This document shows positions 18,450 to 58,521 of a stretch of 64,000 nucleotides of DNA, in pieces (the first letter of the stretch is position 1; each line of letters starts with the position of its first letter). Below the pieces are notes generated by a model that saw only the letters and a list, made by a program, of their open reading frames with translations, was not told the origin of the DNA and did not search any database. Where the stretch lies: assembly GCA_973895155.1 (NCBI GenBank), contig OZ316896.1:6562166-6626165 (forward strand), written 5' to 3'. The DNA is from Marsupella aquatica (lineage: Eukaryota; Plantae; Marchantiophyta). Made by a program: the position numbers and the translations under genes.

Positions 18450-19895
18450 ACCAAAATGTCCTTAGTTTCCCTCCTCGTACTACCCCCTTTGATGAGACCC
18501 AGCCTTCACAAGATTATTCCCCCAAGACTCCACTTGGCCAACCCACGATGGCTTCTTTTCTTGCTTGAACACACTCTTGTAAAACTCGGCCAAGCTCAAC
18601 TCCACCAGAGTGTGCCTAAATTAATTTCCCTTGAAGTCTCCCACGTTCCGTTGAAGTCCAGTGGCAGCAATAGTTTCCCTTAATGAACCACCAGAATTAG
18701 AAACGGGATGTTTATTCTTCTTCCGCGTGCACTTGAAGTGCACTACGAGCATCTGGTGTTCTTGAACCTTCGCGCACCTCCTTGTCTCTTCCACCACTGA
18801 CATCTCGAGATGGCTCGGGTGTTGCATTCCCAGGGTTCCCTGACACCAACCCGCGTCTGATTTTTGAGACCCTACAAGCAAAAACAATACTGGTTAATTA
18901 TAGCGCCCAGTGCTAGCCAAATTTCAACATGCACAGATATTCCAAATAGAAACAGTCTAGAATCTGGACTCATTCTTTTTGGTCTCTTTCTGAGATCCCG
19001 ATGGGGTTGTTTCTTGTTTGGCTTTCGCTTTGGGTTTTCGACTCCTTGCGACTTGAACAACTTGTGTCTCGCAAATCCTCTGCAGATCTATAGCTGATAG
19101 ATCAATCTCAGTATCAATCCCTTGCTTCATTTCCGACAAAATGTTTCTTGGATCAATATTCTTGAATAACTTGTGGAACGTATCCTTCTCTGTATCATCA
19201 AATGGGCAGCTCCACTTATCTGAGTCAAGATACCATGGGCAATGCAAAACTTCCCACTTTGCCATCTTTTATGGTGGATACTTCCCTTCTGCTGGGTACA
19301 TTGAGTACCAAAGAGAGTCTCCGGATGATTCTGACCTCAAATTTATACTGGTCCATTTCAGGAATACAACAGGATAAGCCCAGAAATAGTTTGGGTCATT
19401 CCTCTCCATTTTCATGTAATATCGATTCATTGAATTGCTGTGAGTACGACTTGATCTTGTTCTCACATAAGATATAGACCAAGGCTTCCATGGGCATTTT
19501 CTTAGTAAACCATGAACCCTTTCGGGTTCCTTTCCGCATCTTCTCAAATTTTGCATAATTTGTCTCATCAATGATTGGTTTGTAATGTTCAAGATCATGT
19601 GCCAAAACCCTCCTAATTCGGTCAGCATCCAGAATCCACAAAGACTCCACTACTGCCTGTCCCGTCCTGAGAAACTTAACTTGTTAGAAATAGCACCAGG
19701 CGCTAGCGTAAAGTCTACAACCAAGCAAAAATTGAAATTAATCTACAAAACCACACAACAAATACATTCTAATTAATATGGGCGATAGAGAACTCACTGG
19801 ATAACAATATGCTCTGCTTCAATTTTGATGATGGATTCCTTGTCCCCTTTGAAGATTGTGCAATGCACACGAAGATGTTATTTTGGATTCTCCAA
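18450..19895 (-). pseudogene. 3' part of a decayed, intron-containing TE-associated gene split by the 15.4-kb retroelement
   Basis: ORF fragments 19396-19650 and 18957-19265. Putative splice sites near 19797, 19669 and 18873. Frame joins that of 35286-35466 across the insertion. Confidence 0.45.
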
Positions 19896-20273
19896 TGTCG
19901 TGCGCATACACATCGCTACACAACATACATCGCTTGTCACATACATCCAAACATAGTCACACTGCCACATCACAAACACAAGAGAATGGAATACAAGCTC
20001 CTCTCTCTCCAAGGCTCAACATTGAAAGATGACCTTTCAATGCCTCACAAGTGAGAAGTACCCTCTCACACAAACCTGACGGAACCTTATCGGCTCATAT
20101 AGCACACATACCAAACATACGGATCTAGATAGTACGATACACTCTAACACTACCTAGAATGGTGTGACAGCTGTCGTGCGCATACACATCGCTACACAAC
20201 ATACATCGCTTGTCACATACATCCAAACATAGTCACACTGCCACATCACAAACACAAGAGAATGGAATACAAG
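19896..20273 (-). repeat. 3'-terminal repeat block Y-gc-X-Y of the DNMT retroelement
   Basis: 19896-19997 is identical to 20172-20273. 19994-20169 matches 35110-35285 with one mismatch. Junction GACA-GC-TGTC at 20166-20175. Confidence 0.92.
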
Positions 20274-20379
20274 TGGAACTCATGTCCACACATGTCCAAA
20301 ACCCACAATCGCCCCCCTAGCTGGGAGTAAGGTCCCCTAACTCTAGCTAGCCATGAGTTCTACAAGGTTGATATACACC

Positions 20380-21522: not shown

Positions 21523-21598
21523 TCACCGACACTGAGGACACAACCATGATCCACTAGGAATCACCTGCAATGGTGGTGTCAAACATGACATGTGCCAT
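21523..21598 (-). pseudogene. C-terminal half of the PHD finger and the pol stop codon
   Basis: Translates WHMSCLTPPLQVIPSGSWLCPQCR*, completing CMLC...CDKCSRGW from 26378-26450. Confidence 0.9.
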
Positions 21599-24500
21599 TG
21601 TGATGCCTAGCCAGGAATCACTCGGCCAGTTAAGTGGGTAAAGCAGAAGTGCACCCTAGAAACACCTTAGTATAGGGACAAAACAAGGAAAATATAAACA
21701 ATTAGGGGCGACTATGGAACCCGGGCCGAGGCCGGAGGTAAGGACGCTGGGGGTGAAAACAAGATTAGGGTTACCCGCACTAAGCGTCGGCGGCTAGGAA
21801 GGATCAATGGAAGGAAGGACCGGAAGAGGAGAGGGGTAAGGACCGCTCGCGAGGAATAGTGGCTCATTTGCAAGAACAAACTGGGCAGACGACTACGGGA
21901 GGCCAAATACTGTCAGCTGCTTAGACAAGCACTCGGGGTGGGAACAGATACCAACGATCGACTCAAGGAGGGTATGAGCAACGTCAATCAAGCGGCACAT
22001 TTCTGGGGATGCCTGTTCGAACGGGCAACTGAGTACATCAAGACTTACAAGGACGAAGAATCAGAAAGGGCAGCTCGAGAATGGCAGGAGCTCGCTCGAT
22101 TGTGGGAGCTGCAGAAGACGGCTTTCTTAGGAGGCAAACTCATCAAGGCCGAGTTCTTGTGGACTCCTACTTCCAATCAGCTCGACGATCTTCTGTTTTG
22201 CGAAGATAGAGTCGTCGGCATCCGAGAAGCCATCAAACGCTGCAACAACATACACTGGGAGTTGAAGGGTAGCACGGAGGGGTGGACAAAGGCAACCGTG
22301 CTAGGAGAGACATCCACGGGAGCCAAAATGAAGAGGAAGGGAGCCGTCAACGATGAAGCCACCCCGGCAAAAAGAACGAGGTCGGCGGCACCCAAGAAGC
22401 CAGCCGAGCAGCAGAGCAGGAGGCAGAGAGAAGCCAAAGAGGAGGAGGACGATCCCATCAATGCCATTCCAACCAGGGATGACACCTGGAAAGGCTGGGC
22501 GGCAACCCTACCAGAGGAGGTGCAACTACATTTTGCACGGGAGGAGGATGCATGCTTTACGGCCATGCAGACCAAGAAGTACCAAGGCTTCATGGCCGGA
22601 TCCGGCTTAGAGGCCTTTGTAAGATTACCATGGCTGAAGCCAGAGGTGCCGGATTCAGACCTATTAGAATTCGTGGGGTCATGGGAACCCGAGACCAATT
22701 CCACGAGGATATATGGGAAGGATTTCTATCTTACTCCCAAGGTGATTGCCGAAGTGTTTGGCTTGCCGATAGGCAATAAGACCAAAGTTGATACCAGGAA
22801 GACCTTGCCTGACAAGGAGTTCCGGTCGTTCCCCGGGCCATCAACGAAGAATGGCTTCTTCCGGAACACTTGCACCAACCCGCACATAGGAGAGATGATC
22901 GACTTCTTGCGGGTGACCATGCATTGTAACTTGCCGAGGGCAGAGATCGGCAAGGCTCAGGTCTACCTGGCAGAAAGGCCAGACCCAAGCCGGGATTACA
23001 ACGGGTACCTCCTCAACCAACTGAAGAAGATCTTGAAGGAGGAACAACAGGTGATTGGCGTGGGAAGCGTGTCCCGGCTTGGCTATCACATGCCGCTGTT
23101 GTGCCGGTATGCCAAAAGTCAAATCTTTGCCCCAGTACTTCCCCTATCGGCAAGAGCACCGGAGGAGGATCCGGAGCAGACGCCGGCAATGGAGAAACCC
23201 AACCCGCCCGACAGTCCTACAATCGAGCAGGTGTTTAGGCCAAGGACGGAGGACTTGCCGATGCAACAACCAGGCATGCAGAATCTGCTGAAATTACTGG
23301 AGAAGGAAAAGAGAACGGCAACGGCAACGGCAACGGCAACGACACCAATGCAGGACACTGCTCCAGAGGTGGGCCTAAGCCGGCTTACAAGGGAAAACCC
23401 CTTTACTGGGGTCAAGGAGAGAAGGAGGCCGGAACACGAGCCGGGAGTCCGGATGTATGTCGGAGCCTTAAGTCCCGAAGCCGAGGAGAAGTAGGCCGTA
23501 GCTCCCGGCCACAACAAGGAGAACAAGAGATCAACACGGAAGCCGGAGGAGGAACCAAGACCGGTGAGAGGTGAAGCCGTGTTAACAACAGAACCAGGAG
23601 AACAGCGGGAGAAGCCGGTAGTCCAAGCCGAGGAGGAGGCGGTAGAGGACTACAGCAATGATGACTCCGGCTACGGGTCAGATCATCATGTTCCAGGAGT
23701 AAGGACTTGTGGCCGGTTCATCCCCACGCTCCCAAGAGTAGTTTGAGGAGACCCAAGCCAGCAGAGCAGCCCCGAGTCTCCCCCACCTGATGTCGCTCCC
23801 CCGAGCTTTGACAGCATAAAGCAGACGGCACAGGAATTTCAGGAGCGACTTAGGGAAGCAGAAAAGGCAGCCCTGGCTAGGGAAAAGGATTTGCCAGGAG
23901 GAGATTGGCCGGAGGACATCAGGCGGCTAGCCAAAAAAGGAAGCAAACCTCTAGCCACGATTGAAGAGATCCGCAAGACGGCTTGGGAGCAGAGGCCGCG
24001 ATGGGCGATGCCGATCACTTCTACTTACTCCACCTACGCTAAGAATAGAGCCATGGAGTATGGTGAGATATGTGGGGAACTTGCGCTCGGCATCTTTGGG
24101 GAGGAGTTGGAGGTAGGACCCTTTTTCCATAGGGAGCAGTTGGAGAAGCACCAATTAGAAGAAGTGGTGGCTTTAGAGAGAAGCAAGAAGGACGAGGTCA
24201 TCCGGCGGCTTAGGAGGATGGAAGCCGAGATTGAAGATCTAAGGGCGGCCAAGAAAGCCCAAGATGAACTGCGGATTAAGCGGCATGAGCTGAACATCAT
24301 GCAGGGGCAGTTGGACACCGCGCAGGCTGATAATTAGATTATCAAGGATAAACTGACTCAGACACAGGGAGAATTGGCCGACGCAATCAAGGACAGGGAG
24401 AAATGGAAGAAGGAGCTGAGAGACGCAGAGGAGGCCCACATAGCAGTCAACAACCGGGTCACGGCGGAGACTCAGAGAAGGGAGAGGGCGCTGAAGGAAG

Positions 24501-26377
24501 AGCTCGAGGTCATCCGCAGAGCCCTTGAGCAGAAGGAGGCCGAGTTAGGGAAATCCTATCAAGGGATTCTTGCGCTACAGCAGGAGCTTGCGTCCCTGAC
24601 GGCCAGCTTCAAGGCTGACCTGCGGGAGAAGGACGCCCAGCTCGACCAGACTTATGCCAAGATGAATAACATGGAGTCTGAGGTCGTAGCGGAGCTCGAC
24701 AAGGAGCTAAGAGCAACCCAGGAGGAGAGGGCTACCACCAAGAAGGAATTGGAGGAAGCCCACAGGGAATTGGAGGAAGCCCACAGGGAATTGGAGGAAG
24801 CCAAAAACGAGCTGGAAGAGGCACATAAGGACCTGGATGAGACCTAGGAGGAGTTGGAGGAAATCACGAGGAAGATGGAGAACCTACAGCGGCGGGCCGA
24901 CAACCAAACAGAGCGGCTGAAGAAACAAGCCGCAGTATTTAAATGCTTAGCTGCATCAGGTCCATCTCCCGTTGGGGCAAACCAGTTACCCGGGGTGGTA
25001 ATTGCCGAAGGACCAGCCGTGACACACGGCCCGGTGCTGGACGTTGGCGGCAAGGGGAAGGAACCGGCTATGGAGATAGTGAAGAAGAAGAAGCGGAAAC
25101 CTTCGGGGTCCGGAGGTTATTTGACCCCTCAAGCCGTACTCAAACCGGTACCAACCTCCGACATGAACACGGCAATAGATTCCGCTATCACCAAAGGTGG
25201 GGATGGCGCGGCCCAAGCCGAACTACTCAGTAATGAGGCCGGTATCCCAGACCCACCTCTTGAGCAGGCCGGGGAGGCCGTAGCCGAGGCTGAGGCCGTA
25301 GCCGAGAATGATTTCCGAGCCGAGGCCGAAGCCGAGGGTGGACCCAGTCAGGCCGATGGAGAGTTGACTCAGTCAAGGGCAGGTAATCTGTCAGAAAATG
25401 AGCCTACGGTAGTGGCTGAGGTGGAAGCGTTAGGGGCGTCCATTGAGGATCCACCACCGGTGTCGTGACGGTGCAAGGGCGCCGTTCCTTTTAGGAAGGG
25501 CGGACGTGGAGGGAGGAGGCGTGAGTGGGCAGGGCGGGCTCAGATCTCTAAGTTTAGGATTAGGATCAGGACCAGGAGGCGGCCCTGACACTTAGCTTAG
25601 TGGGATTGCGGTTCCACTGGTAAGAGCAACACTTGTACTTCTGCCTCGCTGTACATAGGTAGATCCAGTTAAGTAGATTAGGCTTACGCTGCAAAGAATT
25701 AGGCGGATCCACTACCAGGATAAGTACCTGGGCAGCGGGGAGCTTAGGGCCTCTTCTTTAGCAAGTTTTTAGTTTGCACCAGCCGGGCTGGGATCAAGTA
25801 GTAAGAGAAGCTCTCGGTTAGTCATACAATGACCCTTGTGTATATTCATGTTTCCTCATGCCTAAGAGCTGAATAGAGTTGGCCTCACGGCTTAGTTCGC
25901 AGAGCTTGTGTATGAGATGTACTGTTTGTATGGCAAGCGCATGGTATGATCGACTCAGTCAGAAGGAGTCATTTTGCTATTTGTGTGTCGCATTAACTTG
26001 TGTGAAGAGTGCCCACATCAACCAACAGAGGAAGGAAAGTAAGCAGGGGAGTGAGAGTTGGATGTGTCGAGCTGAAAGAGGTCTTAGCGGCTTAACCAAG
26101 CCTATTGGGGATCATTCTGGCGGCGGAATCCAAACATACCTAACCAGAAGGAGAGGAAGACAAGGGAAGGCCTAGATTAGGCCGGCTACGTATCTCATGA
26201 CCCGATGAAGGATCTGTCCAGTATATGTGTGTAAAATGTTAATAGTAGTAGTAGAAGGAGGTTAGCAGCGTCCCATGCCGCTAAGCCGCGGAAACGGCCT
26301 CGCCAAGCGTGAAACCTGCGGGAATCGGCTTGCGCTGGGGGGTTTCTTGGGTTTAGGGAGCCATGGGACGCACCACA
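21599..26377. mobile_element. 4.8-kb solo-LTR-like insertion in the PHD finger
   Basis: Termini TGTGATGC...GCACCACA. Perfect 5-bp TSD GCCAT at 21594-21598 and 26378-26382. No internal LTR pair, PBS or pol seen. Confidence 0.8.
21938..25468 (+). pseudogene. Retrotransposon accessory ORF (plant-transposon/mobile-domain-like region plus long coiled coil)
   Basis: ORFs at 21938, 23564, 23891, 24374 and 24854 share one frame, separated by TAG/TGA stops. Motif LLEFVGSW...IYGKDFYLTPKVIAEVFGLP. ELEEAH heptad repeats. May start near the ATG at 21714. Confidence 0.65.
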
Positions 26378-27740
26378 GCCATCCTCTAGAACACTTATCA
26401 CAAATCAACATAGTAGCTGCTCCCTGAGCAAATGCACACAACATACATTTCAAGCCAGCACGAACATGTGCCAAGCTTGGATCTACTGTACCATCAATGT
26501 TGGGAAGGTGACATGGTGCACAGTTGCGCACATGATCCTTCCAAACCATACCATCGCGTCCCTCCAACATCAGGACACCAGAAGGCAATACTTCACGCAC
26601 ACGTAAGATTGTCCGGCCTGCGGTCACATCAAGTATTGTGGGTGCTGTCTGCTGCAAATAAACATAATCACCAGGATGAAATCGTCGAATGCTTGCACGG
26701 TAACCTCCTCCACGAATAGTGGCATACCTCAAAGTATCACGATGTTGGGCAATGGCAAGGTTGTCAAAAGCCATGGGCATCACTCTCTGAAATACCCGTG
26801 CTCTCTCTGAACACACCTTGACCCAAACATCAGGATCATCCAAGTTCACAACTGGTGCAGCATCACGACGAATAGCTGCTGGAAAATCTGGCTCTCTACC
26901 ATAGAGCAAAAAGTAAGGTGAGAAGGATGCAAGTGATGCTTGCCGACTGAAACGGTAGCCCATAGCTAACCAAGGTAGCTGGAGATCCCAATCTCCTAGA
27001 TGACCAACCTGCAAGCCATACTTACGCAATCCTCTCTTCACAGTTTGCACAACTCTCTCAGCTAATCCATCTGCCTCAGGATGATCACGAGAGGTAGTAC
27101 GATGATCAATCAAAGCTTGTTCACACAAACTCTCAAACTCTCCACGGAACTCAGTTCCCTGATCAGTCAACACCTCAGCTGGTGCTCCAAAATGACTGAG
27201 TACGCGATCCAAAAATGTAGCAGCAACTCCTCCACTGGCTTTATCTGGCAACGCCACTAGCTCAATCCACTTGGAGAAGTGCTCCACCATGACCAAAACA
27301 TACCGATTATGGCATTGGGTAAAAGGTAATGGACCAGCAAAATCCAAACTCCAACGATATTCCAAACCCATGATTGGTAACGGGTGCAACTGGGGAGTGG
27401 GAGCATTAAATGATGCTCTCACTCTATCGCATACCACACACTTAGCTATCAACTATTGGACATGAGTGTGCATACCACGCCACCAATACTGTGTTTGCAG
27501 CAAGCTATAAGTGCGCTTCACACCAAAGTGACCCAACTCCTCGTATGCATGTTGCACCAAATGTACTCGTTGTGATGGTTTTGGTACCACCAACACCCTA
27601 CCATTATGTAGTACTCTCAAAAGATGGTTTCCCTCCCATCGAAACCTCTTGGCTCTTTGTAGAACCCTGTCACGTTCTTTGGCATCAACACTACCAACAA
27701 TAGAACCATTGCGCAGATATTCCAACACTCTCATATCATT
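26378..27740 (-). pseudogene. Gypsy DDE integrase plus N-terminal half of the PHD finger
   Basis: Zn domain LGHFG...CVVC, core WSLDFAGP / VLTDQGTEF / HPEADGLAER, then CMLC...CDKC. In-frame stop at 27453. Confidence 0.92.
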
Positions 27741-27949
27741 GTGAATATCTTGTTATCCAAAAGTTACCTCACCAACATCCACATCTGAAGACTCATCATC
27801 CACTTCATCCAATGAGGTAGAGTCCACAGATCCACTGTATGCTGGCACCCAACAAAGAAAGGCAGATGCATGCCATTCTGGCACCATCTCCTTATCTGAC
27901 TCATCATGCCATCTGGCTCCAGTCTCATCCTGCTGATTGGTACATGGAT

Positions 27950-29692
27950 TGCGGCTTAATCCATCTGCATCCAAGTTCACTTTTCCAGGCCTATGCACCA
28001 CCTGGAAATCATACTCCTGTAACAACAATGCCCATTGTGCAAGCTTTCCTGTAAGCTTGTCAGACTCCATTAACCACTTAAGAGGCTAATGATCAGTGAT
28101 CAAGGTGAAGGGGTTACCAAACAAGTAGCAACGAAAGTGTGCAACAGCCCACACTACTGCCAAACACTCTCCCTCATAAGAGCTATACTTAGCCTCTACT
28201 GAATTGTTTGATCTACTGGCATAAGCCACAACAAACTCATTCCCCTCATCATCCTTCTGAGTCAGCACTACTCCAAGTCCTACTCCACTCCAATCAGTGT
28301 GTAGCTGAAATGGTCTGCCTGAAATGTGTCTTCTCAAAATAGGGGATGATGCCAACCTTTGCTTCAACTCCTGAAAGGCATGCTCCTGGTCATCACCCCA
28401 AATCCATTCCTGATCCAACTTAGTGAGTATGGTCAAAGGTTTAGCAAACTGGCTAAATCCTTTAACATACCTCCTGTAGTAGCTCGCCAATCCCAAGAAT
28501 GCACAAACTCTACTCACATCAGTAGGACAAGGAATCTGTGTAATGGCCTCCACTTTAGTCTATTGTACACCCAATCCCCCTTGGTATATAGTGTGGCCCA
28601 AATACTCAATCTGGTCTTGGAAGAACTTACACTTGCTAGGATGGAGCTTCAACCCATGTGCTCTCAATCTCTCCAACACAGTCTGCAAGTGTTGCTGATG
28701 TTCTTCCACAGTAGAAGAATAGACCAAAATATAATCAATATAATATCTGATAAAATCCAAACTTGCAAGGATTCGATCCATGACTCTCTGGAACTCAGGT
28801 GGTGCATTCTTCAACCCAAATGGTAAGAATAACCACTGATACAAACAATCTTTGCCATAAGAATCAATCCCCCAGAATGCTGTCTTGGACCTGTCAGCAT
28901 GCCTAATTGGAAGCTGATGGTACCCTGCCCTCAGATCCAATGAACTGAAAACCTTTGCATGCCCCACAACATCAAAGATCTCCTCAGGTGTGGGCATGGC
29001 ATATCTATCAGATTTTGTCTGGCGATTAATGGGTCTGTAATCACCACACATGCGCCTATCTATCTCGGGGGTTTCACTTCCACAAAAATGGCATATCACG
29101 TGCGACAAAGGATAGGGTCATTTTATTGATTGTAAGGGAAGACTTAAGAATTTTTGTAGAAGAACAATAGGGTCTTTTAAATTCAATTTTGAGACTTATA
29201 AGAACATTAGGGTCTTTTTAATCCAATTTTTGGAATATTCCAAGAATATTTCAACTTTATAGGGGTTAAAAAATAATATTTGTTTCTTACATTTTAGGGG
29301 GTCCAAGGCCTAAAAACGTCGTAGGTGATGGGGAGGTCCCCATGTAGTGAGACCCCCGAGCTATCTATGTAATTGCCATGCACATCCTTCTTGGCTGGCA
29401 TCACTGTGGCAGATGCATACTCCCCATATGAAATCTCCACCAATCCAACCTCCAACAAATCTTGAGTTCTGCTTTGAATCAGAGCTCTCTCCATGTCACT
29501 GTAACGGTATGGCCTACGAAAGATTGGCGCATCACTAGCCAATTCAATCTGAATACCAGGACCCTTTAATGTCCCCAAATCTTTCATGCTAAATGCAAAA
29601 CAATTCCAGTAACTCTTCAGGAATCGATGCATGCGACGTCTCTCCTCCCTTGTCAACTTAGGGCCAAGCTGTGGTTCCCAACTCTCCACCAA
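27950..29692 (-). pseudogene. Gypsy reverse transcriptase and RNase H, disrupted
   Basis: RMCGDYRPIN, LDLRAGYHQ, LPFGLKNAP, YIDY (YxDD mutated), FLGLASYYRR, HTDWS, YASR, YEGECLA, ITDH, ADGLSR. Interrupted by the MITE at 29064-29360. Confidence 0.92.
29064..29360. mobile_element. MITE, CTCGGGGG-TIR family, copy 2, inserted in RT
   Basis: TIRs CTCGGGGGTTTCACT / AGTGAGACCCCCGAG. 8-bp TSD CTATCTAT at 29056-29063 and 29361-29368. Confidence 0.93.
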
Positions 29693-29934
29693 ATCCCTAA
29701 TATCTCTTTGTAGGGTAGAAGAGATAGCCGATGATTGCTATTTAGCAGTAGATTGAGCAGTCCCTTCCTGCTCAACAATCTGTTCAGCCTTGGCCAATCC
29801 TGCCATAGGTCCATGGACTGTCTGCTCGCCCCCAGCTGTGGTCAGTACTGTCTTAGTGGACCGCAAGCTCACCAAGGGACAATCAGTTAAATCCAGCAGA
29901 GCGCATCCGCAACTGTTCAGCTACTCCCAAGCTG

Positions 29935-30876
29935 ATAATCCAAGTCAAACAATTCAGGTCCATTGCTTGACAAAGAACCTAGCGCCGCAAACCCTCTGAC
30001 ATAGAGGCAACTGCAGTGGTGCCAGTCAAAAATCCCATAGCACTCTCTCTCTCATCAGCAGTAGGTTCCACTAACTGCTGGAGAACTGTGTCCCACACAA
30101 GTCCAGGGCCACCTGCTCTGAATGCATATGAAGCAGAGTGGCTTACAAGAGTGGGTAATGCACAACGTGGGCACCCAACTGCATTGACCATTGCCAATGG
30201 AGGTCTATCAGGTTGGGTCACACCCTGTGCACGACGCCCTGGATCCAAAATATCATCCACCACTAAGGCTGGTGAGCGTGGAATGCTGTCAAAATGCGCG
30301 CTTCAGCACCTCACATGGGATCAAATTAGTCCACCACAAGCGTGGATGATGTGCACGAGAACCCACACGTGCAGCATCCAATAACACAGCAAGTCCAACC
30401 CAATACCTCACCTGGTGAACACTGGCAACAATCCGACTACGATCATCACCTGACAATGGCACATTCTCCAAAATGTATGCTGGAGAGTGTGTCTGATGTA
30501 GCTGGAGATGACGCAGCACCCGTAACATCTCCCAAAACAATGCAGAGCGTGGATCATGAAGTCCATGCCCAACACCAGCTCTAGATTGGCCCTGACATGG
30601 CCAACCAGCAATCACCAAATCAATGGGGCCAACACGATGCAGATGATCTGCCCCCAGCAATGAAATATCAGCAGGTAGTGCATGCTGATAACCACGAACA
30701 ACATCCACTTGCAACAATTGTGGATATCTATCCACCAACATAGCCACATGTCGCAATGAGACCCTCCGTGCTATCTCATCTGACTCTACATACAAATAAC
30801 GACGCACAGGAATTCCTGCCTGAAGAACAGCAGCCAATCCAGTGCTAATCCCACCAAAAAGATCCAACAAACAAAT
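29935..30876 (-). pseudogene. DNMT3-like C5 cytosine DNA methyltransferase domain within pol
   Basis: Motif I LDLFGGIST, II YVESD, IV IAGWPCQG, V GLHDPRSALFWE, VI YILENV, VIII LLDAARVGSRAHHPRLWWTNL, IX ERESAMGFLTGTT, X VLCQAMDLN. One frameshift (about 30291) and one stop (29979). Confidence 0.9.
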
Positions 30877-31289
30877 ACCCTCTGGTGGATATTGCCAAGC
30901 AATAGGAGTGGTATCCAATGGTGAAAGAGTCACAGGTTCATCTGCAAGAGGCTGCTTTGCTCCTGACTGTGGTGTAAAAGCATGACGCCATGCATCATGT
31001 ACCAATCGTGCTGCTGTCTGTGGCAAGGCTTGTGCAGTGCCCCACACTGGTGGCACAACACTGCCAACAGGTAATCCTCGCATGATGTGCTTCTTATGAG
31101 ACTCCTCCAATGATGGAACATCTACTGCATGCGCATTACCCTCAATCAAATCATCAGGTCCAGCAATTAGACCACGGAATGTTGCCAAATACAATGGTGT
31201 GAATTTAGGGCCTCCCACAGGTCCACTAAATCTCACTGGAAATTTTCTCAATCGAGCATCTCCTGACTGCCAATCAGGTCTATATGACA

Positions 31290-31640
31290 CTGATTCCTCC
31301 CAAAAATCAAGAATAAATCCCATGGGGTAGAGCACTGTACATCCCACCAACACATCATATGACTCTGCCTTAGTCAAAATAGCTTGCGATTGTATCTGTG
31401 AGCTATCTATGGTATGACCTTCCTGAATCCTCAAATCAAGAGGTCTCCTGGTAATGTGTTGTGTAGGTGTAGGTCCCCCCAATGAAGTCTGAATGGGAAA
31501 GGGACAATCCTCCAAATCCTCTGGACGCAATCCCAATCCACGTATGGCAGACTTTCCCAACATCAAGGGCTGAGCACCAGTATCCAGTAACACCCTCTCT
31601 GGCTGGTATACTGCTCCAGAAGGCCCAACTAATCGGAAGA
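31290..31640 (-). pseudogene. Retropepsin aspartic protease domain
   Basis: VLLDTGAQPL and YDVLVGCTVL motifs in ORF 30289-31944. Confidence 0.8.
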
Positions 31641-31831
31641 TACCACTCCGATTATCCAATGATACAACACTAGGTTTAAACCTAGTCCTCTCAAATGCAG
31701 GGCGTGCTGGTAAATCCACCAACCTCGTTGCTGTTGCATGCCATGTCTCACTAGTAGCAGTAGGTGGCATGGTCTTCACTACATCAATACTGCAAGTTGC
31801 TTCTGCATGGGAAGCAACCACTAGAGTGTCC

Positions 31832-33710
31832 TCACAGAGTGTAGCTGCCAATCTGAACACTTCTGCAGGACCAACTCCCAAGTTCAGCATGTTTGTCACT
31901 GAAAATAATGGGGCGCGTACCATGGCAATAGCCGCCCCCAACAACGTACGTCATCCCTGCTACATCACTACCTGATTCTGCCAACTTACCCACATCAAGG
32001 TTTGTTCGAACCGGGTTCATAGAGGCAGTCTGAACTGTCTCTAACAATGTAAAAGACTGTGAAAGCTTTGTCTGCCGACGTGCATCCCCCCTTTGTGGAT
32101 CTAACTCCACTACTGCTCCTTGGGGCTCAAGAACTTTGGCTGCCCCACGTGTCAAAGCTGCTGATGCATCAATATGTGCAGTGCCACACATGAATCCCAT
32201 GGTGGCAAGGTCTCCATCAGCTCCATAAGATGTGGAAGGACCATGGGATGTGGAAGGTCCATAGGATGTTGATGCCCCATCACCAGAAGTAGGTCTCACC
32301 TGGGAACTAGCCATGGCAGCTAGCTGTTGCTCCAATTGAGCAATCTTAGCATCCTTTGGATCTATGGTTATAGCAGGGGTAGCGTCACCTCCCTGTCTCC
32401 CTGCATGTGGCATGCCATGACCACGTCCACCGCCTCTACCTCCTTCTCTTCCCTGATCATGTGTACGGGATCCTCCTCTCCGTAACTCAGGATGGAGTGA
32501 GAAACACCTATCCTTGGTGTGTCCAGGAGCTCCACAGTGATCACACTGTCGCTGATCAGGCGTAGATGCTCCCCCTAATCCTCTATGATCTGGGCAATAT
32601 CTCTGTGCATGATCCCCACCACAGGTCCAACATCCTGACTGCTGTCCAGCATAAGAGGGCACAGGTCTCTGGCTGGTAGACTCTCGTGCAGTAGGCTTCT
32701 CCCTCTGGCTCTTCCGTGCAGTAGGCTGTGGTGTGGATGTGGATGCAGCCTTTGGTGCTTCCTTGGAAAATCCGGAAGTCACCACCTTCTCATTCACCAT
32801 ATTGAGCTCAATGCGCTCAGAAACAACTGCTAATGTGGGATCTGCATCCCTAAGCAGAGTGATATCTCTCACTCTACGTCGCAATTCTCTGTCCAGAATT
32901 GCATACCAAAACTGGACTGCCTGAGCCTCTGTCACTCCCTTGGTGATAGTGATCAATCTGCGCATACGAGTGTATGCCTCACGTAGACTCTCTCTAGTCT
33001 TGCGCTGGAACTCCTTAAGACCCTTCAACTTATCAGTTCTTACACCCTGATAGTTCTGCTTTAGTACCTCAAAGAATTCCACCATAGGGTTAAATGCTAG
33101 CGCAACTCCAGTTCCTGTCACAATCACACCGGCAGGAGTAGCAGATGATGCTGCTGGTGGATGATGTGCCACTCTGGCTAGTGCTGCTAGAAGAAGCAGC
33201 AGTGTGGCAATGGGTTGGGCAGCCGCACTAGTGCCATAGGTGATGGACACGTAATTAGGCGACCAATGCTGCCTCCATGCCTCAATCTCAACCAAATGAT
33301 TGAGCCTTCCAAAACTCATGGTAGTCATCCATGGGTGGCCCCTCCAAATGCTGAAATAATCCCTTCCATGCCATGAAAGGGGTAAACAATGTGGCGTTAC
33401 GCAATGTCTGCATATCGCACCACGTATCAAACTCCCGGATGAAGTCATCCAGATCAATCGTGCCAACTGCACCAGAGTATTGTCGTGGGCCCTTTGTAGC
33501 CCCGTACATCTCGTCCATATCCCACAACAAAGGTGCAACCACCTGATGATGAGGAGAACTCGTCACTGAGTCCTCATCAGAATCACTATCTGAAGCTGCA
33601 CTGCTGACTGCTACCAATGCCGCTGGCCGAAACTGTGCCCCACTCCGAGTGAAACCGGTCCGTCGTCCATCAGGTAATCCAGCAGCACCAGAAGAATCCG
33701 TGGTGACCAA
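31832..33710 (-). pseudogene. Gag of the DNMT retroelement, frameshifted
   Basis: YSG..DLDDFIREFDTWC, FQRKTRESLREAYTRM, and two CCHC knuckles CWTCGGDHAQRYC and CDHCGAPGHTKDRC. Confidence 0.85.
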
Positions 33711-34440: not shown

Positions 34441-35109
34441 CGTCCCCTTATGCACGCACAGTTGTGTGTGTACACAAAACAAAAGTCGTCGGGCTCAGAA
34501 ATGGCAACATTTGCCACTCGAAAGTAGTGATTTCCTTCACAAAAACGGCAACGTCGATGGCTCTCGATCTCTACAAACCTGTCGCGCACGGTTCTGGGAC
34601 ATTTTGCGAGCGTCCCTTGACAATAAAATGTTGCGAGCACTCAAAATTCCAACAGATCTGTCCACAAAACAGCAGTGCGATACAAGCAGCAACCTTCGGC
34701 CATCTCTTTCCAGATCTAGACTCCGACTCAATCCAGATCTAGACCAGATCCAGATCCAACAACGTTCAAGCTTGGCCAGAACCAGATCGAATAACAACAG
34801 AGTACTCAAACAATAGAACCAACGATTCAAGAAACATGAATCCGCGTCAAACACAAATCCAATTGATTCGAGCTACCATGAACCGTCACCGTCAACGACA
34901 AACTCAGACTGAGCTTCTGTCTGCACAACAGAGTTTGAAGCTCATGATCTTTCAATGTAATCTCCATACAATCGGCACAACGATCCCGGTCAACAATACC
35001 CCATTGATCCCGCACCGATCCGATCACACACGTATGTCAAGCCAACGCACCTTGCACTACTCAAGAAATCCACGTTACACAAGCGGAGCTCACAGCCACC
35101 ATAGCCACT

Positions 35110-35285
35110 CAAGCTCCTCTCTCTCCAAGGCTCAACATTGAAAGATGACCTTTCAATGCCTCACAAGTGAGAAGTACCTTCTCACACAAACCTGACGGAA
35201 CCTTATCGGCTCATATAGCACACATACCAAACATACGGATCTAGATAGTACGATACACTCTAACACTACCTAGAATGGTGTGACA
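35110..35285 (-). repeat. 5'-terminal repeat X of the DNMT retroelement
   Basis: Matches 19994-20169 except one base. Contains hairpin CATTGAAAG-atgac-CTTTCAATG. Confidence 0.92.
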
Positions 35286-36210
35286 CCAGACTCTCATTTG
35301 TAACTTGAGTCCACAAATACAAACGATGGTTTCCATAAAAAATTGAGAACATCTTGTCCTTGAGGACCAAGAAAGCGGGATCGCCATCACATTCAGTTTT
35401 GAATAGTTGGTTCTCAACTGCCCAAATTGGATCCCATGTGCTGCAAATTTTGTTGGACAGGTGCAAAGTTGTTGAGCACGTTCTTCATTAGATGGCTGGA
35501 CAAAGAAGCGCATGCCAATTGCCGAATTGTACCCAGAAGTCCTAAATGAGTCCTTCAGCTTCACAATCGATTGACTATTTCTATGAAGGGTTCAAACAAC
35601 CTCCATATGAACCAGGCAAGAGGAATTCAGGGAAGTTCTTTTGGCAACCCACTACCATCAACTCCAAACGACATGATGTGCTTGTCGACGACATCTACAA
35701 CTTACTTCTCCACATCTTCAGCATTTTGAACCGCAAAACCACCAAAATGCTCCATTTTGGCTTGCCTAGGTTCTGGAGATTGGAGCTCTATGTGACTGGG
35801 AGGATACTGTGAGGTCAAACGCGTTACTCTTCTACTCGACACACAACTTGAATATGACGACTCCAAAGACTGGGAATGATGTGGAGACCCAGCTCCCATT
35901 TTGTTATACTCTCTACCCCTTGCCATTTTTTCCCGTTTGATGTTGTCCCATACGATAGTTAATTCAATCCAATAACCAACCTTCTTGCCTATGACCTTGT
36001 TCGGTACGGTAGTTTGTTTAGCCAATCACGTACCTCCTGGTCTCCCCTTCCCAGCTCGCTTCCAAGACGGACAACCTGGTCAAACGACCCTAACAGAATG
36101 GCAATTATCTGCCACGCTTGAGTTCCCCCAAAAGGACTATCATTAAAGTTGTTGACAACTAGGATCGAGTAAACCGATGTAAGGTATATGAAGGGTTTGC
36201 AAATGGGCAA
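35286..36210 (-). pseudogene. 5' part of the decayed TE-associated gene, with a ParB/Srx-like GNHR motif
   Basis: Fragments SGYNSAIGMRFFVQP and KMFSIFYGNHRLYLW. Joins across the insertion to NESL|ENPK*HLRVHC. Confidence 0.45.
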
Positions 36211-37874: not shown

Positions 37875-39195
37875 GACTAAGAGCAATACCTAACAAACTC
37901 CCCCTTGACTCTTGTCTTGGGGATTGGACTAATTGCTACCATATGGAATCCTCAGCGGGAAGTTCTAGACAATCACCTAAATAGGTCTCCCCCTAAAAAC
38001 CACAAGAGTTAACTAAGGGTTAACTAGAACTAAGCCGTAGCCAAACTGGAATGAGTAATCCATATACAAATAGTCACAACATTGCTAAATAACTCTACTT
38101 GCGCTACAACTGCAAAACATGCAAAGTAGCACTGTGTCTTGAGAAACTCTCCAAAGGAAATCACTTTGGTAAAGGCATCAGCGGGATTGAGCTTTCCATC
38201 AATCTTGACTAGCTCAAAAGTTTTATCAGACAGTGCTTGTCTGATAAAATGGTACCTGGTATCAATGTGCTTCACTCTGTTATCCATCACCTGGTTAGCA
38301 ACCAAGTGAAGAGCACTCTGACTATCACAGTTTAGAGATATTTTGCCATGCTCTAAACCCATCTCCATGATCAACCTGTCCAATCAAATTTCTTCCTTTG
38401 CCACTTTTGCTGCTGCAACATACTCTATTTCTGTAGTAGACTGAGAGATACACTTCTGCAAGGTAGATTTCCAACTGATACATTCTCCTCCAAGAGTAAA
38501 TACATACCCAGTTGTAGATCTCCTTGTATCAAGACTTCCTCCATAGTTAGAATCTACATAGCCAATCAACGTTCTATTTGATCTGACATCAAATAGCAAG
38601 CCATGGTCCAGTGTTCCCTTCAGATACTTGAGAATCCATTTCACAGCTTCCCAATGTACCTTCCCTGGATTTGACATGAATCTGCTAACCTTGCCCATTG
38701 CTAGGGCCAAGTCAGGCCTAGTACAAGTCATCAAATACATCAGACTGCCTACTGCCTTCTCATAAGGAATCTTAGCCATCAGACCTTTCTCCACAGCATC
38801 CGTAGGAGAGAACGCCGATGATAACTTGAAATGTGAAGCTAAAGGAATACTCACTAGCTTACAATTTTCCACGTTGAATTGTGCAAGTACCTTCCTCACA
38901 TACTTGCCTTGATTCAAGCACAACTGTCCAGTATCAGAGTTCCTAAAAATCTCCATCCCTAAGATCCTCTTGGCCTTACCAAGATCCTTCATCTTGAATT
39001 TAGAACTCAATTTTGCCTTGACTCTGTCAACCTCAGATTGGTCTTTAGCCACAATTAGCATGTCATCCACATAGAGAACCAGAATGATGAAACCAAACAC
39101 ATCATTCTTGACTGATTTTGTATAGACACAAGGATCATACACCATCATTGTAAAACCTTGAGCAAACATGAAATCATCAAACCGCTTGTTCCATT

Positions 39196-39479
39196 CTTGG
39201 GGGGTTAACTAAGTGTATATTTTGGGGTACCACGTGCGATCCTAGCCTAATATAAATAGACCTATTTTATAAAGAAATTATTCCAAGAATATTCTCTATT
39301 TTCAATATTAATAACCTATTTTATTTTATAAAAAGTATATATTAGAGAATATTCTATAAACATGAGTTTATAATACCTTCTTTTGCCTCCTACGCTTTTT
39401 AAAAATTTAGTTAATTTCTATCAAAAATACCTATTTTGGATCGCACATGGTTCCTAAGATTTTTAGTCAACCCCCCGAG
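39196..39479. mobile_element. MITE of a related CTCGGGGGG-TIR family, inserted in copia RT
   Basis: TIRs CTTGGGGGGTTAAC / GTCAACCCCCCGAG. 8-bp TSD GTTCCATT at 39188-39195 and 39480-39487. Splits QWN|KRFDDF. Confidence 0.9.
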
Positions 39480-40429
39480 GTTCCATTGTCTAGGAGCTTG
39501 CTTCAATCCATACAAGGACTTGAGCAATCTACAAACTAAGTTCTCTTGGCCCTTCTTCATAAAGCGTGGTTGTCTCATGAAGATCATCTCTTCCAAGTTG
39601 CCATAGAGAAAAGCAATAACAATGTCCATCTGATCCATCACCAGACCAAAAAACATAACAAGATGACACAAGATCCCAATTGTGGAATACTTAGCCACTG
39701 GTGAAAAGACCTCATTGTAATCCACTCCTTTCTCCTGAGTGAATCCCTTGGCAACAAGCCTTGCCTTGTAGATCTTGTCTCCACCCTCTGAAGGACTGTC
39801 CTTCAACTTGTAAATCCACTTGCTGTCCACCACTTGCTGACCTCTTGGAAGCTCCACAAGTTCCCATGTCTTGTTGTCACTCAAAGATTGCAACTCCCTC
39901 TGCATTGCTGCATTTCATTCATGCTTCTGCTCTGAAGTACAAGCCTCACTCTACAAAGAAGGCTCTCCTTCAAGATCAAAGTCATATCATCATCATCAGG
40001 TGCAATGTCAATATCATCTAGCTTAGATGAGTCTGCCCATTGACCATACCTGGTAGGAGGTCTAGTAGAACGACTAGAAGTTCTCCTAGTAGATGATTCA
40101 GGCTGATCTACTACTATTGCTGGCTGAATTTGAGGTACCCCAACAAAAATCTGCTCCTCTTGTTCCATCACAGGAACCAGCTCCATACTCGGAGCTTCTC
40201 CATCTCTCCTATCATGAACATCATCAATGACTAATCTCCCCCTCAACCCGGTCCGGGCTAGGAGATTTTCCTTTGTCAGTATGGGAGTCCTGAGAATTCT
40301 CTCCCTCCTTTGATGATCTGGATTCATTAAAGGACACATCTCTACTGACAATTAGCTTACAGGTTACTGGATCCCATAACCTATACCCTTTCACACCTTT
40401 CTGATAACCAAGGAAAATGCACTTCTTTG

Positions 40430-41444: not shown

Positions 41445-44400
41445 ATGAAAGTGGAATTTGTTGACCTTTCCGATAGTGGCGATGAACAAGATTTTGCCAA
41501 AAATCTCCTTCCTGACAAGAATGTGAAACAAGAACTGTCAAACGAAGTTGGTCATGTGAAAGCTTTAATTGTTTATAGGAGGAGTGCGCTTGACGTAGTT
41601 CTAAAAGCTAAAGGTCAGAGTGAGATTAGTAGATTCATGCAAAAGAACAATTATTGATTTGAGCAAGTGTCAAGCTTGCCAGTCACTTACAATGGAAATG
41701 TCGTGTTTGAATTGCCCCGTGTTGTTGGAGTTTTCTTAAAAGGTGAACGGCTATGGGATATGGATCGGAGCAAAGATTGCTACTATATATTGGAACCATA
41801 TTGTTACCACTTAAATGCTAATGTTCTCCCCCCAAAAAATGTGGGATTTTTGGAAAGTGTTTTGCATAGGTTTGCTAGAATATTGTAATAATTCTTGCGA
41901 GTTTTGGGTCGATTATGGAATTTGGAATGCAAAATTTTGGGTTAGATTTCCAAAACTTTTAGGGCTGCATATTGTTGGTCAACTCATTCCCAAGGGTGGA
42001 ATTGTTTGTCATTACTATTGCAAGCATCCTTTTTGTGTTCAATCTTGTCCAACAATGATGTTCTACATGTACGCATCTTTCAAAGTTGACGTAGAGTCTG
42101 CAAAGCATATGTTGCACCTTGCTATTCATATGGGATTTCATAACCATCTGAGCAAACAAGTGTTTTCCCAACAAGTGAAGAAGGTGGCAAAGATCCACTA
42201 GAGCAAGGTTTTGGTTTGAATCCCCAAGCAACTGCCTCGGGTATAAAGAAAATGGTCACCAAATCTCTTTTTAATGCCATGTGTGAGTCATCTGTGTAGG
42301 ACATGGTCCCAATAGAGGAGAACGAGATTTTTGAATCTCTCCAAGTGATCTCTACCCCATAGAAATTTCTCAATCTTCTGAGAAGTATTCGGCAAGACCA
42401 AAAAGGGAGAGGGGAATTGGAGTTCCTAGTTAGTATGCAAAAAAACATCTTCTTCCCATTTCTACAAAGGTTCATGATGTCGGGGCAAGGGTGTCGAGAG
42501 GAGAGTGCACACATTTTCAAAATGACAATTAAAGGAGAAGGCTCGAGACTGGATCTTCTTCAAAGGATGCAACATGGAGGGTCTCTTGAGATTGCTTGGG
42601 TTAGTTTTGATGTAATGCATCAAATGACTAAGGACTGGCTTATGTTTAGTGTCCATGTTTGCACTTTGCATTTGGGAAGTAAAGCACGCCAAACATCGCT
42701 TCTTATGGGATAGGTTGCGGAATGTGGCAACATTTATTGAGGCATGTCATATTTGAAGAGAAATTGATTCCTAGTGGAAGTCCGGGAATTGCTACCCCGG
42801 TAAATTGCAAATGTTGCAAGGTTGGCTTTCTTGGTGCGATGTCCAGTGGCATGAGTGTGGAAATTTCATTCGATTGGTAAAGCATTCTTGACACTCTTTG
42901 GTTTCTTAGCATTTGGCGCTCCTTATATCTGTTTATCACTAACCAGATATCTTTATTTGAATTGTTGGATCTTCCTATTGAGTTGGCTAGCGCATGATGC
43001 TATTAAACTAGTCTTAGCTTATCTGATAAAGATTATCTCTATTGATTTCCACAAAGCAAGAGTGCCTAAGAGGCGGCCATGATTCCAAATTGCACGGGTT
43101 CAGAGTTGTCTCATGTGTCAATGCTTGGCAAACAAAGATGAAGGTTGATATTTTTGAAGGATGCAAAACTTATCAGAACAAAGCGATCTCTCAAGTTGGA
43201 GCCTATACAGCTTGTAAGAGGGGATTGAATAGAGGGAATGGTCCAATAGTGTTTGAGTTGGCTTTCCATTTTTCCAACCTTGTAGGGTCACCACAGTTTT
43301 TTGAAGAGGAACCTTTTCCTTTCCAATGCGGTTGAATTCAATTTGGAAAGGACTTCCCCTTTGAACAAGGACGTCGTTGCTCAATTTGTAAAGAGGAAGG
43401 GGAATGCTACTGGAAATGTCTTGGCCCAAGACTCCCATTAACACGACACTATCCTCATTAATACTCCAAACACCTGAGGTACGTTTGAAGTGGAGGAACC
43501 TTAACAGAACTGAATTCTCAACCATTATGTCAGAACAATTTGTTCAAGATTGTGTCATTGTGAATCTTTCAGAGAGCGATGGTTCAGATGGCCTTTGTGA
43601 GAGAAGTACGGCCCCTCCTGCAATGGAAACTAGATCACTTGGGACTCCAAGAACACCTCCAGTGGAAGTTGTCAACGGAGAATCCCTGCCAATGCCAGAG
43701 GTCAATGTTTCTTCTGGATCCTGGCATATTCGGAGAACTTTGAAATGTGGCGCTTGACCGGTATGCAATGGGTCACTTGGCAGATGAGGTGAACGTGATG
43801 AATGTAGAAATTGATTGAAGCTCGGGGGTCTCACTATATGGGGACCTCCCCATCGCCTGCGACGTTTTTAGGCCTTGGACCCCCTAAAATGTAAGAAATT
43901 TTTTTAATTTTTTAACCCCTATAAAGTTGGAATATTCTTGGAATATTCTAAAAATTGGATTAAAAAGACCCTAATATTCTTATAAGTCTCAAAATTGAAT
44001 TTAAAAGACCCTATTGTTCTTCTACAAAAATTCTTAAGTCTTCCCTTAGAACCAATAATATGACCCTATCCTTTGTCGCACGTGATATGCCATTTTTGTG
44101 GAAGTGAAACCCCCGAGGATTGAAGAAGGTAGGTTACCTGAATTCAAATGGAGTTGTTGGCATTGCAGCTTGAGTAGCATGGCTCTTTAGAGGGGAACCA
44201 CATCTTGAACTTATTTGGTCCTATCCGAACAAATTTTGTTACAAAAGCCGTCCCTGGAAGGATTTGGTGAATGTTCCCACCCCTCTTGATACCCTCCTTG
44301 TTGCAATGGCCACAAATCTATTGGTTGTGAAAATTGAATTTCTAAAGCAGAATGGAGTGTCGCTCAATGTTGGAGGTGGAGATATTGGAACCGGACCAAG

Positions 44401-49300: not shown

Positions 49301-50302
49301 CAGCAGGGACTCTTTCAGAGTTTGAAGCCGAGTCCGCAGGAGGTTCATCTCTTCCGCTCGTGCTTTAGGGGAGCCCTGTTTTAAATGGTACATCTTGCGC
49401 AAATGGCAGGAAGCTCATTCAAAAGCCAACAGTGGCTCAGTGTAGTTGCCCTTCCCCAGCTTCTAGGCTCCTTCCAATGCCTCCAGATGATCTTTGTTTC
49501 TGACCACAGCCGGGTTCGCTTTAAACCACACCGGCCCACCCGGGGGACAACCGATGTCCTCCCTATCTCCCAGTCAAATTATGATCACTACAGGATCGTG
49601 GTCAGAAAGTGCTGACCCCCCATCATGTATCAGTTCCAATAGGTCCCCCAACCATTCCCCTTTTTCACTGAAGTAAAATCGATCCAGACGTGACTGCACA
49701 ATTACCTCGTTTCTGCATCTGCGCCAGGTAAAATGGGAGCCAGTAACCTCTTTAATCAGCAATGCATCCGCCAGATCTAGCCGGACTTTCAAAAAACGCC
49801 AAAACTTGGCTTCCCGGCCCTTAAGCAAAGGTGATAGCCCACTCAAATCTTCTCTAAGTTCTGTCATGTTAAAATCCCCACCAAGAATCCAATTGCCTTG
49901 AGGAAGGAGTGATTTCAGCTCGTGCCATAAGCAAGCCCGTAGTCGAGGCGAGTTCGGAGCATAGATGCTAACCATTCCAAATTTTCCTCCTTCCGATTCT
50001 ATCACAGCCCATACGGCCCTTCCCAGGTCAATCACGCTCGTTGCCAATATCTTCAGATCAGGGTGAATCAGCAGAGCAGACCCCCCCCGACCCTCATCTG
50101 GTGCAAAAGTGAGGTGCTGATATAGCGGCAGTATAGCCCTCAGAGCAATATCCAGCTGAAATTGATTTGCTTTTATTTCTTGTAACGCCAGAATATCTAT
50201 CTTCTCTCTACAGGATTCAATCCAGTTCCTGACTACCATTTTCCTATTAGGTTCACACAATCCGCATACATTCCAGGAAGCAATCCAAAGCAGGCATGTC
50301 AT
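46384..50302 (-). pseudogene. LINE ORF2 (APE endonuclease, RT, zf-RVT), frameshifted
   Basis: SWNVCGL, LQE, GDFN, SRLDRFY, SDHDP; KAPGPDG, WRPLTMLN, KLDFEKAFD, GVRQGCPLSP, LFADD, KYLG; CKLC...HLFSQC. Confidence 0.92.
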
Positions 50303-50343
50303 ACTTCGACCCCCTTTCCGCTACCAGAGTAGAGTGCCAATCC

Positions 50344-58465: not shown

Positions 58466-58521
58466 CTAGCCTAAATTTGAATCACCGAAGCAGCGGCCTC
58501 CATCTCTGCCTCCGAGTTGAG

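Follow-up and report, generated by a model that had tools for sequence, protein, structure and literature searches.

The window, by which we mean the whole 64,000-nucleotide stretch of Marsupella aquatica DNA that was analyzed, almost certainly contains a decayed member of a multi-copy Ty3/Gypsy retrotransposon family, whose Gag-protease reading frame ends in a conserved DNMT3-type cytosine methyltransferase (DNMT) domain. The element spans positions 35285-19896 on the minus strand (15.4 kb), beginning with TGTCA and finishing with GACA; domain scans recover the Ty3/Gypsy order Gag, protease (PR), reverse transcriptase (RT), RNase H (RH) and integrase (INT) with a DDE integrase, and the best PDB match of the pol frame is Ty3 Gag-Pol (E=3e-86). 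A Gypsy-Dnmt3 element with the same repeats is already published for Klebsormidium, and the larger surprise here is the logic of the repeats. On balance, the best explanation of the whole is an element with a Gag-side DNMT3 domain that probably methylates its own DNA and probably integrates from a two-LTR circle.

The split repeats announced in the preliminary description are present both in the window and in relatives. Along the element the order is A1, coding region, B1, GC, A2, B2 (A-coding-B-A-B), and the two full, equal LTRs expected at the ends of an inserted copy are absent; this arrangement is complete in the window, L033, L077 and L080 and partial in L002, L047, L054 and L079. On the minus strand, repeat A1 (34959..35285, 327 bp) starts with TGTCA and marks the true 5' end: read depth falls from thousands to about 10-350 beyond 35291, and diverse loose ends begin at 35285. 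Repeat B1 (20172..20309, minus) ends with GCACGACA and is supported by the joint 20308->34958. Repeat A2 (19994..20169, minus) is identical to A1 at 175/176 positions, and repeat B2 (19896..19997, minus), identical to B1 at 102/102 positions and ending in ACA, marks the true 3' end, single-copy contigs stopping at 19921; at the border between A2 and B2 the window has lost 187 bp at a 4-nt microhomology. B1 and A2 meet in an end-to-end junction, the palindrome GACA-GC-TGTC (20166..20175), which is the predicted integrase attachment site. The whole is flanked by a target-site duplication, CTGG on the 5' side (35286..35289, minus) and TTGG on the 3' side (19892..19895, minus). Duplications of 4 bp also flank relatives: among nine distinct copies with both ends visible (the end of L080 being placed by eye) the duplication is perfect in seven and differs by one transition in two, the window included. 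The possibility that the LTR of some other element had served as insertion site for the DNMT element was rejected, because layout, junction and duplications are the same in relatives.

The LTR of reverse transcription is best defined as the unit B-GC-A, because a site complementary to the element's own RNA lies after A and a polypurine tract lies before B. The predicted RNA 5' end, preceded by a hairpin arm, offers a 12-nt self-primer (35135..35146, minus) to a complementary primer-binding site (34947..34958, minus); that is, 12 nt at the end of A pair with A position 140, a match found in 0/5000 shuffles. The corresponding pairs are 17 nt with A position 164 in L077 (0/5000 shuffles) and 13 nt with A position 183 in L120, where 8/300 shuffles hold such a pair anywhere. 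The self-primer sequence differs from family to family, and a hairpin arm precedes each site. A match of at least 10 nt is present in only 10 of 23 A1 ends of one family, and no self-primer was found in the decayed L079/L080 family; folding of the whole region gives weak z-scores (-0.97, -1.87), only the primer duplex being significant. No tRNA-type primer site was seen in the element. A self-complementary primer site at the 5' repeat is the signature of Tf1 self-priming, and self-priming is very probable here: the RNA would prime itself in the fashion of Tf1, giving a linear DNA with B-GC-A as the LTR at both ends. The polypurine tract CAGCTAGGGGGGCG (20310..20323, minus) lies directly before B1; the tract GCTAGGGGGG adjoins B1 in three families, which have the tract and GACAGCTGTC in common.

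At the join between A2 and B2, the last base ahead of the primer site is fused to the first base that follows the polypurine tract, and this exact fusion recurs in L033, L047, L054, L077 and the window's family (joint 20308->34958). B1 and B2 share six copy-specific columns with no fixed difference (four copies), which indicates either one template for both or later homogenization; A1 and A2 likewise share ten such columns with no fixed difference (three copies). Inserted copies end at the internal junction GACA-GC-TGTC, with TG...CA ends. Because these ends lie at the internal junction, and because the A2|B2 join is that of a two-LTR circle, we lean toward integration by way of a circle. The ends of the linear DNA would be joined into a two-LTR circle, after which the DDE integrase would cut at the junction within the upstream copy of the LTR, with loss of the 2-bp spacer; the inserted element would thus be the circular permutation that results from opening the circle at the upstream GACA-GC-TGTC. 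A DDE enzyme acts on abutted ends in the junction circles of IS3 and IS911. The integrases of foamy virus and HIV can also cut palindromic LTR-LTR junctions, a shared DDE action on two abutted palindromic ends (PMC2884000). In retroviruses, however, such cleavage is a side activity and circles are dead ends (PMC3148978), whereas the junction here is fixed, inherited and marks the ends that are seen.

The permutations observed are one-sided, and this counts against the circle: a symmetric two-LTR circle predicts a second permutation, A-B-GC-A-coding-B, which occurs in 0/19 distinct 5' ends. There is also a short form, A-coding-B, in 9 of 17 B1 contexts. Its interpretation as the product of one-LTR-circle integration was abandoned, because L029 (short) and L054 (full) are the same insertion, so that a later B-to-B deletion or assembly collapse suffices to produce it. 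The circular contig of L120, with one B-GC-A unit, could also come from assembly collapse and is therefore no evidence for a circle. A separate observation concerns the same pair of loci: L029 and L054 are 91% identical in the element body and 95-99% identical in the flank, a contrast that suggests either that the methylated element mutates much faster than its flank or that the assembly is chimeric.

The replication mechanism of Ngaro provides the comparison for a different route, which we consider possible but the less probable: the RNA would span B1-GC-A2-B2, the internal junction would template both ends of a linear DNA ready for direct use by the integrase, and no true two-LTR circle would form. 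Such a DIRS/Ngaro-like route explains the single permutation (none of the 19 5' ends is preceded by B) and fits both the nearly constant A2|B2 join (4/4 copies of one family) and a repeat layout that is that of DIRS (PMC5890265). Against it stand the conservation of a canonical primer site and a polypurine tract around B-GC-A, for which it has no need, and the failure of B2 to form a separate lineage; in addition, the variant joins are such as end-joining gives, namely the 187-bp microhomology deletion of the window and the rearranged L025 and L051, which keep about 10 nt of primer-site sequence at the join. SymbioDIRS-Dnmt3 and the DIRS/Ngaro elements resemble the window element in having direct repeats that are split, a methyltransferase as cargo and, by inference in our case, an intermediate of circular DNA (PMC5890265). 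A difference is that DIRS/Ngaro elements use a tyrosine recombinase (PMC5890265). Such a recombinase is absent from the window element: its enzyme of integration is a DDE integrase, represented by rve and H2C2 domains only, its ends are TG...CA and the duplications at its target site measure 4 bp. Returning to the circle, we tentatively suggest a streptophyte-wide Ty3 lineage with attachment sites in mid-LTR, for which the circle would be the normal precursor and whose Gag-level DNMT3 would methylate that circle and might choose the junction.

All coding features lie on the minus strand. The Gag region (31950..33518), with a CCHC knuckle at 32545-32504 and 46-88% identity to the Marchantia protein P0006, is followed by an aspartic protease (31250..31690, limits approximate; LLDTGA at 31590), by the DNMT3-type C5 cytosine methyltransferase as the C-terminal domain of ORF1 (29935..30900, PCQ and ENV intact) and by a conserved in-frame stop in a readthrough-type context, TAG CAA TCA (29732..29740). 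Downstream come the RT (28563..29722), which is split by a MITE and whose YxDD reads YIDY, RNase H (28089..28400), an integrase with an H2C2 zinc finger and a DDE core (26900..27749; DFAG, TDQG and GLAER intact) and a PHD finger in two pieces, the N-terminal half at 26378..26450 and the C-terminal half at 21526..21598. Both the PHD integrase and the damage reported in the preliminary description are real. The PHD finger is recognized by Pfam (E=1.1e-5) but is interrupted by a 4.8-kb insertion, and comparison with intact relatives reveals four frameshifts (near 33300, 31940, 30291 and 29891) and five internal stops (29981, 28562, 28088, 27755 and 27455), in addition to the MITE and the nested insertion. 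The DNMT domain itself is broken at the frameshift near 30291 and the stop at 29981, with a further frameshift near 29891. Given the frameshifts and stops, the MITE in RT, the insertion in PHD and the YIDY motif, this copy cannot be autonomous. The repeats of the window differ at only 1/278 positions, yet the element body is badly decayed, which suggests that a defective copy moved recently in trans or that gene conversion has occurred.

The initial assignment of the domain as a DNMT3-like C5 methyltransferase, with its motifs in order, its catalytic PCQ and ENV intact and the protease in the same reading frame, is borne out at each point. With the motif numbering I-X that we assume for this domain, the motifs run unpermuted from I to X (30867-29958, minus): I, LDLFGGIS (30867-30844); II, YLYVE (30798); IV, DLVIAGWPCQG (30621-30589); V, GLHDPRS (30564); VI, YILENV (30477-30460); VIII, RAHHPRLWW (30357-30331); IX, EPTADERE/AMGF (30068-30030); and X, QAMD (29969-29958). 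The permuted order that characterizes plant DRM enzymes is thus absent. The LLDTGA of the protease (31590) and motifs I-VIII lie within one stop-free frame (30289-31950). The Pfam DNA_methylase profile matches above its cut-off (E=6.5e-10). For the structure model and the PDB sequence search we used P0001, a break-free relative with 89% identity: its best PDB sequence match is DNMT3A (E=3.6e-11), followed by DNMT3B, with weaker matches to HaeIII (4.5e-5) and DRM2 (3.9e-3). The predicted structure of P0001 matches DNMT3A at E=8e-17, with TM values of 0.71-0.82 across the top five matches; its mean pLDDT is 67, the DNMT domain being mostly above 80 and the catalytic loop (residues 442-449) below 50.

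In 24 aligned sequences the catalytic Cys, the EN of ENV and the residues of motifs I and VIII are invariant or nearly so, while motif IV reads PCQ or ECQ across the wider radiation. For the window compared with L002, L010, L016 and L033 the dN/dS of the DNMT domain is 0.13-0.16, and between families with unsaturated dS it is 0.13-0.17, indicating purifying selection, although these ratios are rough because dS, at 1.8-2.0, is near saturation; the values are similar to those of gag and protease and above that of RT. Within one family dN/dS is 0.59-0.76, as post-insertion decay predicts. The element shares the unpermuted DNMT3-type catalytic domain with host enzymes of plants such as Physcomitrium DNMT3a/b (PMC6453930). 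The host genes, however, stand alone and carry a C-terminal DUF3444, whereas the element's domain is intronless and fused into a polyprotein, and DUF3444 gave no match in our Pfam scans (PMC6453930 for the host genes).

The place of the domain in the polyprotein differs in one respect from what had first been described, which was a position in pol directly before RT. The domain does lie upstream of RT, but a tail of 76-99 aa and a conserved stop (29740-29738) intervene: the DNMT is the end of ORF1 (Gag-PR-DNMT) and is separate from the RT-RH-INT-PHD unit. We surveyed this stop in 81 sequences, 52 of them anchored and 43 distinct at 98%. Among the latter, 31 have TAG and 11 have TAA, and the next codon is CAA in 42/42; the remaining sequence, L070, was mis-anchored and has an in-frame TAG at the same place. 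The 42 contexts comprise 38 CAA CCC, two CAA CCA, one CAA TCA and one CAA CTC, most of them from one family, which leaves as independent cases the window, this family, L016, L070 and L120. In L120, which is intact and divergent (47% identical over the N-terminal half of the DNMT), 1162 open codons of Gag-PR-DNMT are followed by TAG CAA TCA and by 1047 open codons of RT-RH-INT-PHD. Reading frames from Marchantia and Calypogeia terminate at a similar distance past motif X, and a continuous DNMT-RT frame without a stop is seen only in distant relatives, e.g. P0038, P0057 and P0060. The sequence CAR YYA after UAG is the readthrough signal of TMV (PMC2754532), matched exactly in only 3 of our 42 contexts, and in-frame stops fix the ratio of Gag to Pol in other retroelements (PMC10085805). 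Readthrough of the stop is, in our judgment, highly probable. It would make Pol rare and the DNMT as abundant as Gag; the protease may release the DNMT, and at the end of ORF1 the enzyme would likely be packaged in many copies.

Priming and stop together invite comparison with Tf1/sushi elements and plant Tcn1, which also have a self-primer at the RNA 5' end pairing just after U5 and some of which share an in-frame readthrough stop (PMC10085805, PMC6317226). Those elements differ in having a chromodomain and canonical paired LTRs but no methyltransferase, and their stop comes directly after Gag. In the window element the stop follows protease and DNMT, the LTRs are permuted, and the integrase, from which a chromodomain is absent, bears a PHD finger instead.

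What would such an enzyme do? A capsid-level methylase surrounding DNA that persists extrachromosomally until it is circularized would most simply methylate that DNA, and we think it rather probable that the cDNA is its substrate: the DNMT would methylate the long-lived extrachromosomal DNA, which would then arrive pre-marked or protected. Self-methylation of cDNA was proposed in 2018 for DIRS elements, SymbioDIRS-Dnmt3 was found to methylate CG, and KnitGypsy-Dnmt3 produced no methylation in yeast, a result that its authors call inconclusive (PMC5890265). In coding regions the CpG observed/expected ratio lies anywhere between 0.22 and 0.78, depending on the copy, the highest value being that of the intact L120, and a spread of this size gives no lineage-wide CG-decay signature of self-methylation. 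The PHD finger, for its part, might tether integration to nucleosomes with unmodified H3 tails. Its best structural relatives are those of CHD4, PHF12, UHRF1, KDM5A and PHF21A, which we take to be readers of unmodified H3 tails. Selgy elements, once considered as PHD carriers, were dropped from the comparison when the literature gave no support.

Three other roles compete with methylation of the cDNA. The enzyme could act mainly on host chromatin or on the integrated copy, damping the element or remodeling flanking methylation. Expression at the level of Gag would supply much enzyme for this, and moss DNMT3b performs de novo CG and CHH methylation (PMC6453930), but we regard such a role as unlikely, since the K. 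nitens methylome is ordinary and plant-like despite such elements (PMC5890265) and the PHD reader sits on the integrase, not on the DNMT. It is more doubtful still that the element retains the fold to bind nucleic acids or to methylate RNA inside the particle, and not for DNA methylation. In favor of this, the algal relative showed no activity in yeast (PMC5890265), the domain lies at the Gag C-terminus and motif IV varies between PCQ and ECQ in the wider radiation; against it, the 24 aligned sequences hardly vary at the catalytic Cys, at EN within ENV or at the residues of motifs I and VIII, and the related SymbioDIRS-Dnmt3 methylates CG (PMC5890265). Lastly, the DNMT might act at the junction, methylating the CG of GCACGACA on the strong-stop duplex so that the two LTR copies would be marked on opposite strands and the integrase could pick one junction. 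A one-sided permutation needs a mark, the CG is retained at the end of B in four families (the window, the L033 family, L080 and L120), and a methylase occurs together with split repeats in SymbioDIRS-Dnmt3 and KnitGypsy-Dnmt3 also. End choice based on hemimethylation operates in IS10. Nevertheless, this scheme is purely inferential and seems to us improbable: CG-to-TG/CA changes, common at the B-end site in old copies, speak for methylation but do not indicate its source, and the missing permutation could instead have decayed by A-to-A recombination.

The domain is a trait of the family and not a one-off capture, because relatives are spread over Marchantia, Calypogeia, Sphagnum and Closterium. 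The N-terminal 203 aa of the DNMT retrieve 39 longer relatives with 38-89% identity: a single sequence reaches 89%, numerous gene models of Marchantia polymorpha fall at about 58-76%, Closterium stands at 43%, and others come from Calypogeia fissa and Sphagnum troendelagicum. The liverwort and moss sequences agree with the first impression that the element belongs to land plants, and the domain, far from being limited to this copy, occupies the same position in many copies and several hosts. Scanning of metagenomes confirmed 204 of 272 pattern matches, of which 80 loci were kept; most of the 40 loci longer than 6 kb show gag-PR-DNMT-RT-RH-INT-PHD as far as the contig extends. A profile search returned 459 clusters (50% identity) at E<=1e-30. 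In 4/4 sequencing runs from two organisms the DNMT has a depth like that of RT and INT, hundreds-fold over the flanks, a ratio that is not a copy number. In a quick DNMT tree, thinned to 76 rows and built without host DNMT3, the window groups with Marchantia, Calypogeia and metagenome copies (support 98), and in RT-RH a Calypogeia protein matches it with 81% identity, which points to a host of bryophyte type. Capture by chance of a host DNMT3 fragment in one copy, for which only the broken state of the window copy speaks, can be dismissed in view of the same position in dozens of copies from several genera, the purifying selection and the DNMT depth like that of RT and INT in 4/4 runs.

Viral contigs yielded no element of this kind: a single DNMT query found no match, an alignment query found 32 loci with only distant phage methylases, and the 16-nt junction pattern gave seven matches, none with element domains. 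The searches also brought up a second architecture, RT-RH-DNMT-INT-PHD (P0063-P0077, P0081-P0089 and many of P0096-P0238), whose members cluster together with a support of 99 whether the quick tree is built from the DNMT or from the RT. In this large sister lineage a DNMT3 of the same kind occupies a different position within the polyprotein. Some of its members have no recognizable motif IV, and P0073 and P0088 carry a G-patch domain, which in P0073 lies between DNMT and integrase. L120 (1-9285), a fully open element on a circular contig, is filed in a cyanobacterial genome bin and is evidently mis-binned eukaryotic DNA.

The closest published element is KnitGypsy-Dnmt3 of Klebsormidium nitens, which has in common with ours an intronless, unpermuted Dnmt3 domain under purifying selection in a Gypsy element (PMC5890265) and, according to a figure legend, DIRS-like A-coding-B-A-B repeats combined with Gypsy domains (PMC5890265). 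Purifying selection was judged there by Ka/Ks < 0.2 (PMC5890265), and the window DNMT has values in that range. The two differ in that the algal DNMT lies in the Pol ORF with RT and RNase H, that of the window element on the Gag side of the conserved stop, and in that KnitGypsy-Dnmt3 is described as an acquisition of the K. nitens lineage, the window element being found in land plants (PMC5890265). The accessible text of that description gives no primer, polypurine tract, junction, target duplication, PHD or mechanism (PMC5890265). Among the relatives that we retrieved there was no DNMT from an element named for K. nitens; identity is 40-45% for three RT-INT proteins of K. nitens, of which one has a PHD, and these were placed in an RT quick tree that is unrooted and has no outgroup. 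We therefore file the element as a relative of KnitGypsy-Dnmt3 and not as a member, because its DNMT is not in the ORF of RT.

A search of the open-access literature returned no report of the land-plant range, the readthrough or the circle model; two papers that cite de Mendoza 2018 speak of 'streptophytes'. With the present family, DNMT3-carrying retrotransposons extend from an algal curiosity to liverworts and mosses, the model Marchantia included. Several annotated Marchantia 'DNA methylase' genes (e.g. Mp_4g09160 and Mp_8g17980) belong to such elements and could distort the tally of host methylases. The question raised in 2018, what an element gains from a methylase of the sort that normally silences elements, becomes testable in a genetic model. 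The permuted LTR, if true, would exemplify in nature a route with the circle as precursor, an idea once put forward for retroviruses and later rejected, and split repeats would hide the family from surveys based on paired LTRs, e.g. the LTR-FINDER set of REXdb.

Several further features of the window concern its other inhabitants. The MITE in RT (29064..29362, 299 bp) is bounded by an 8-bp duplication, CTATCTAT, which we take to be hAT-like; with its inverted ends it occurs three times in the window (29064-29362, 43819-44117 and 2665-2949). The nested 4.8-kb insertion (21599..26377, plus strand) runs from TGT to ACA within a 5-bp duplication, GCCAT, and is foreign to the family, the joint 21593->26378 being present in 4/4 runs. 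On the strength of that joint, the reading frame at 21860-25468 was assigned to the nested insertion, and its interpretation as an ORF antisense to the element was rejected. This frame, on the plus strand, is a decayed coiled-coil ORF of 1200 codons with only weak atlas leads, to Transposase_32/ATHILA clusters. The insertion lacks long repeats in its interior, and its depth exceeds that of the DNMT element 2- to 10-fold, depending on the run; it is possibly a giant solo LTR. The flanks of the DNMT element (35286-35500 and 19800-19895, minus) had no match in an atlas search; they read in one frame across the 4-bp duplication and look like the remains of an older low-copy coding repeat. Elsewhere, Copia fragments and two decayed LINEs (endonuclease, RT and zf-RVT) lie at 9452-13231 (plus), 38384-39914 (minus), 46384-50790 (minus) and 54541-59337 (minus).
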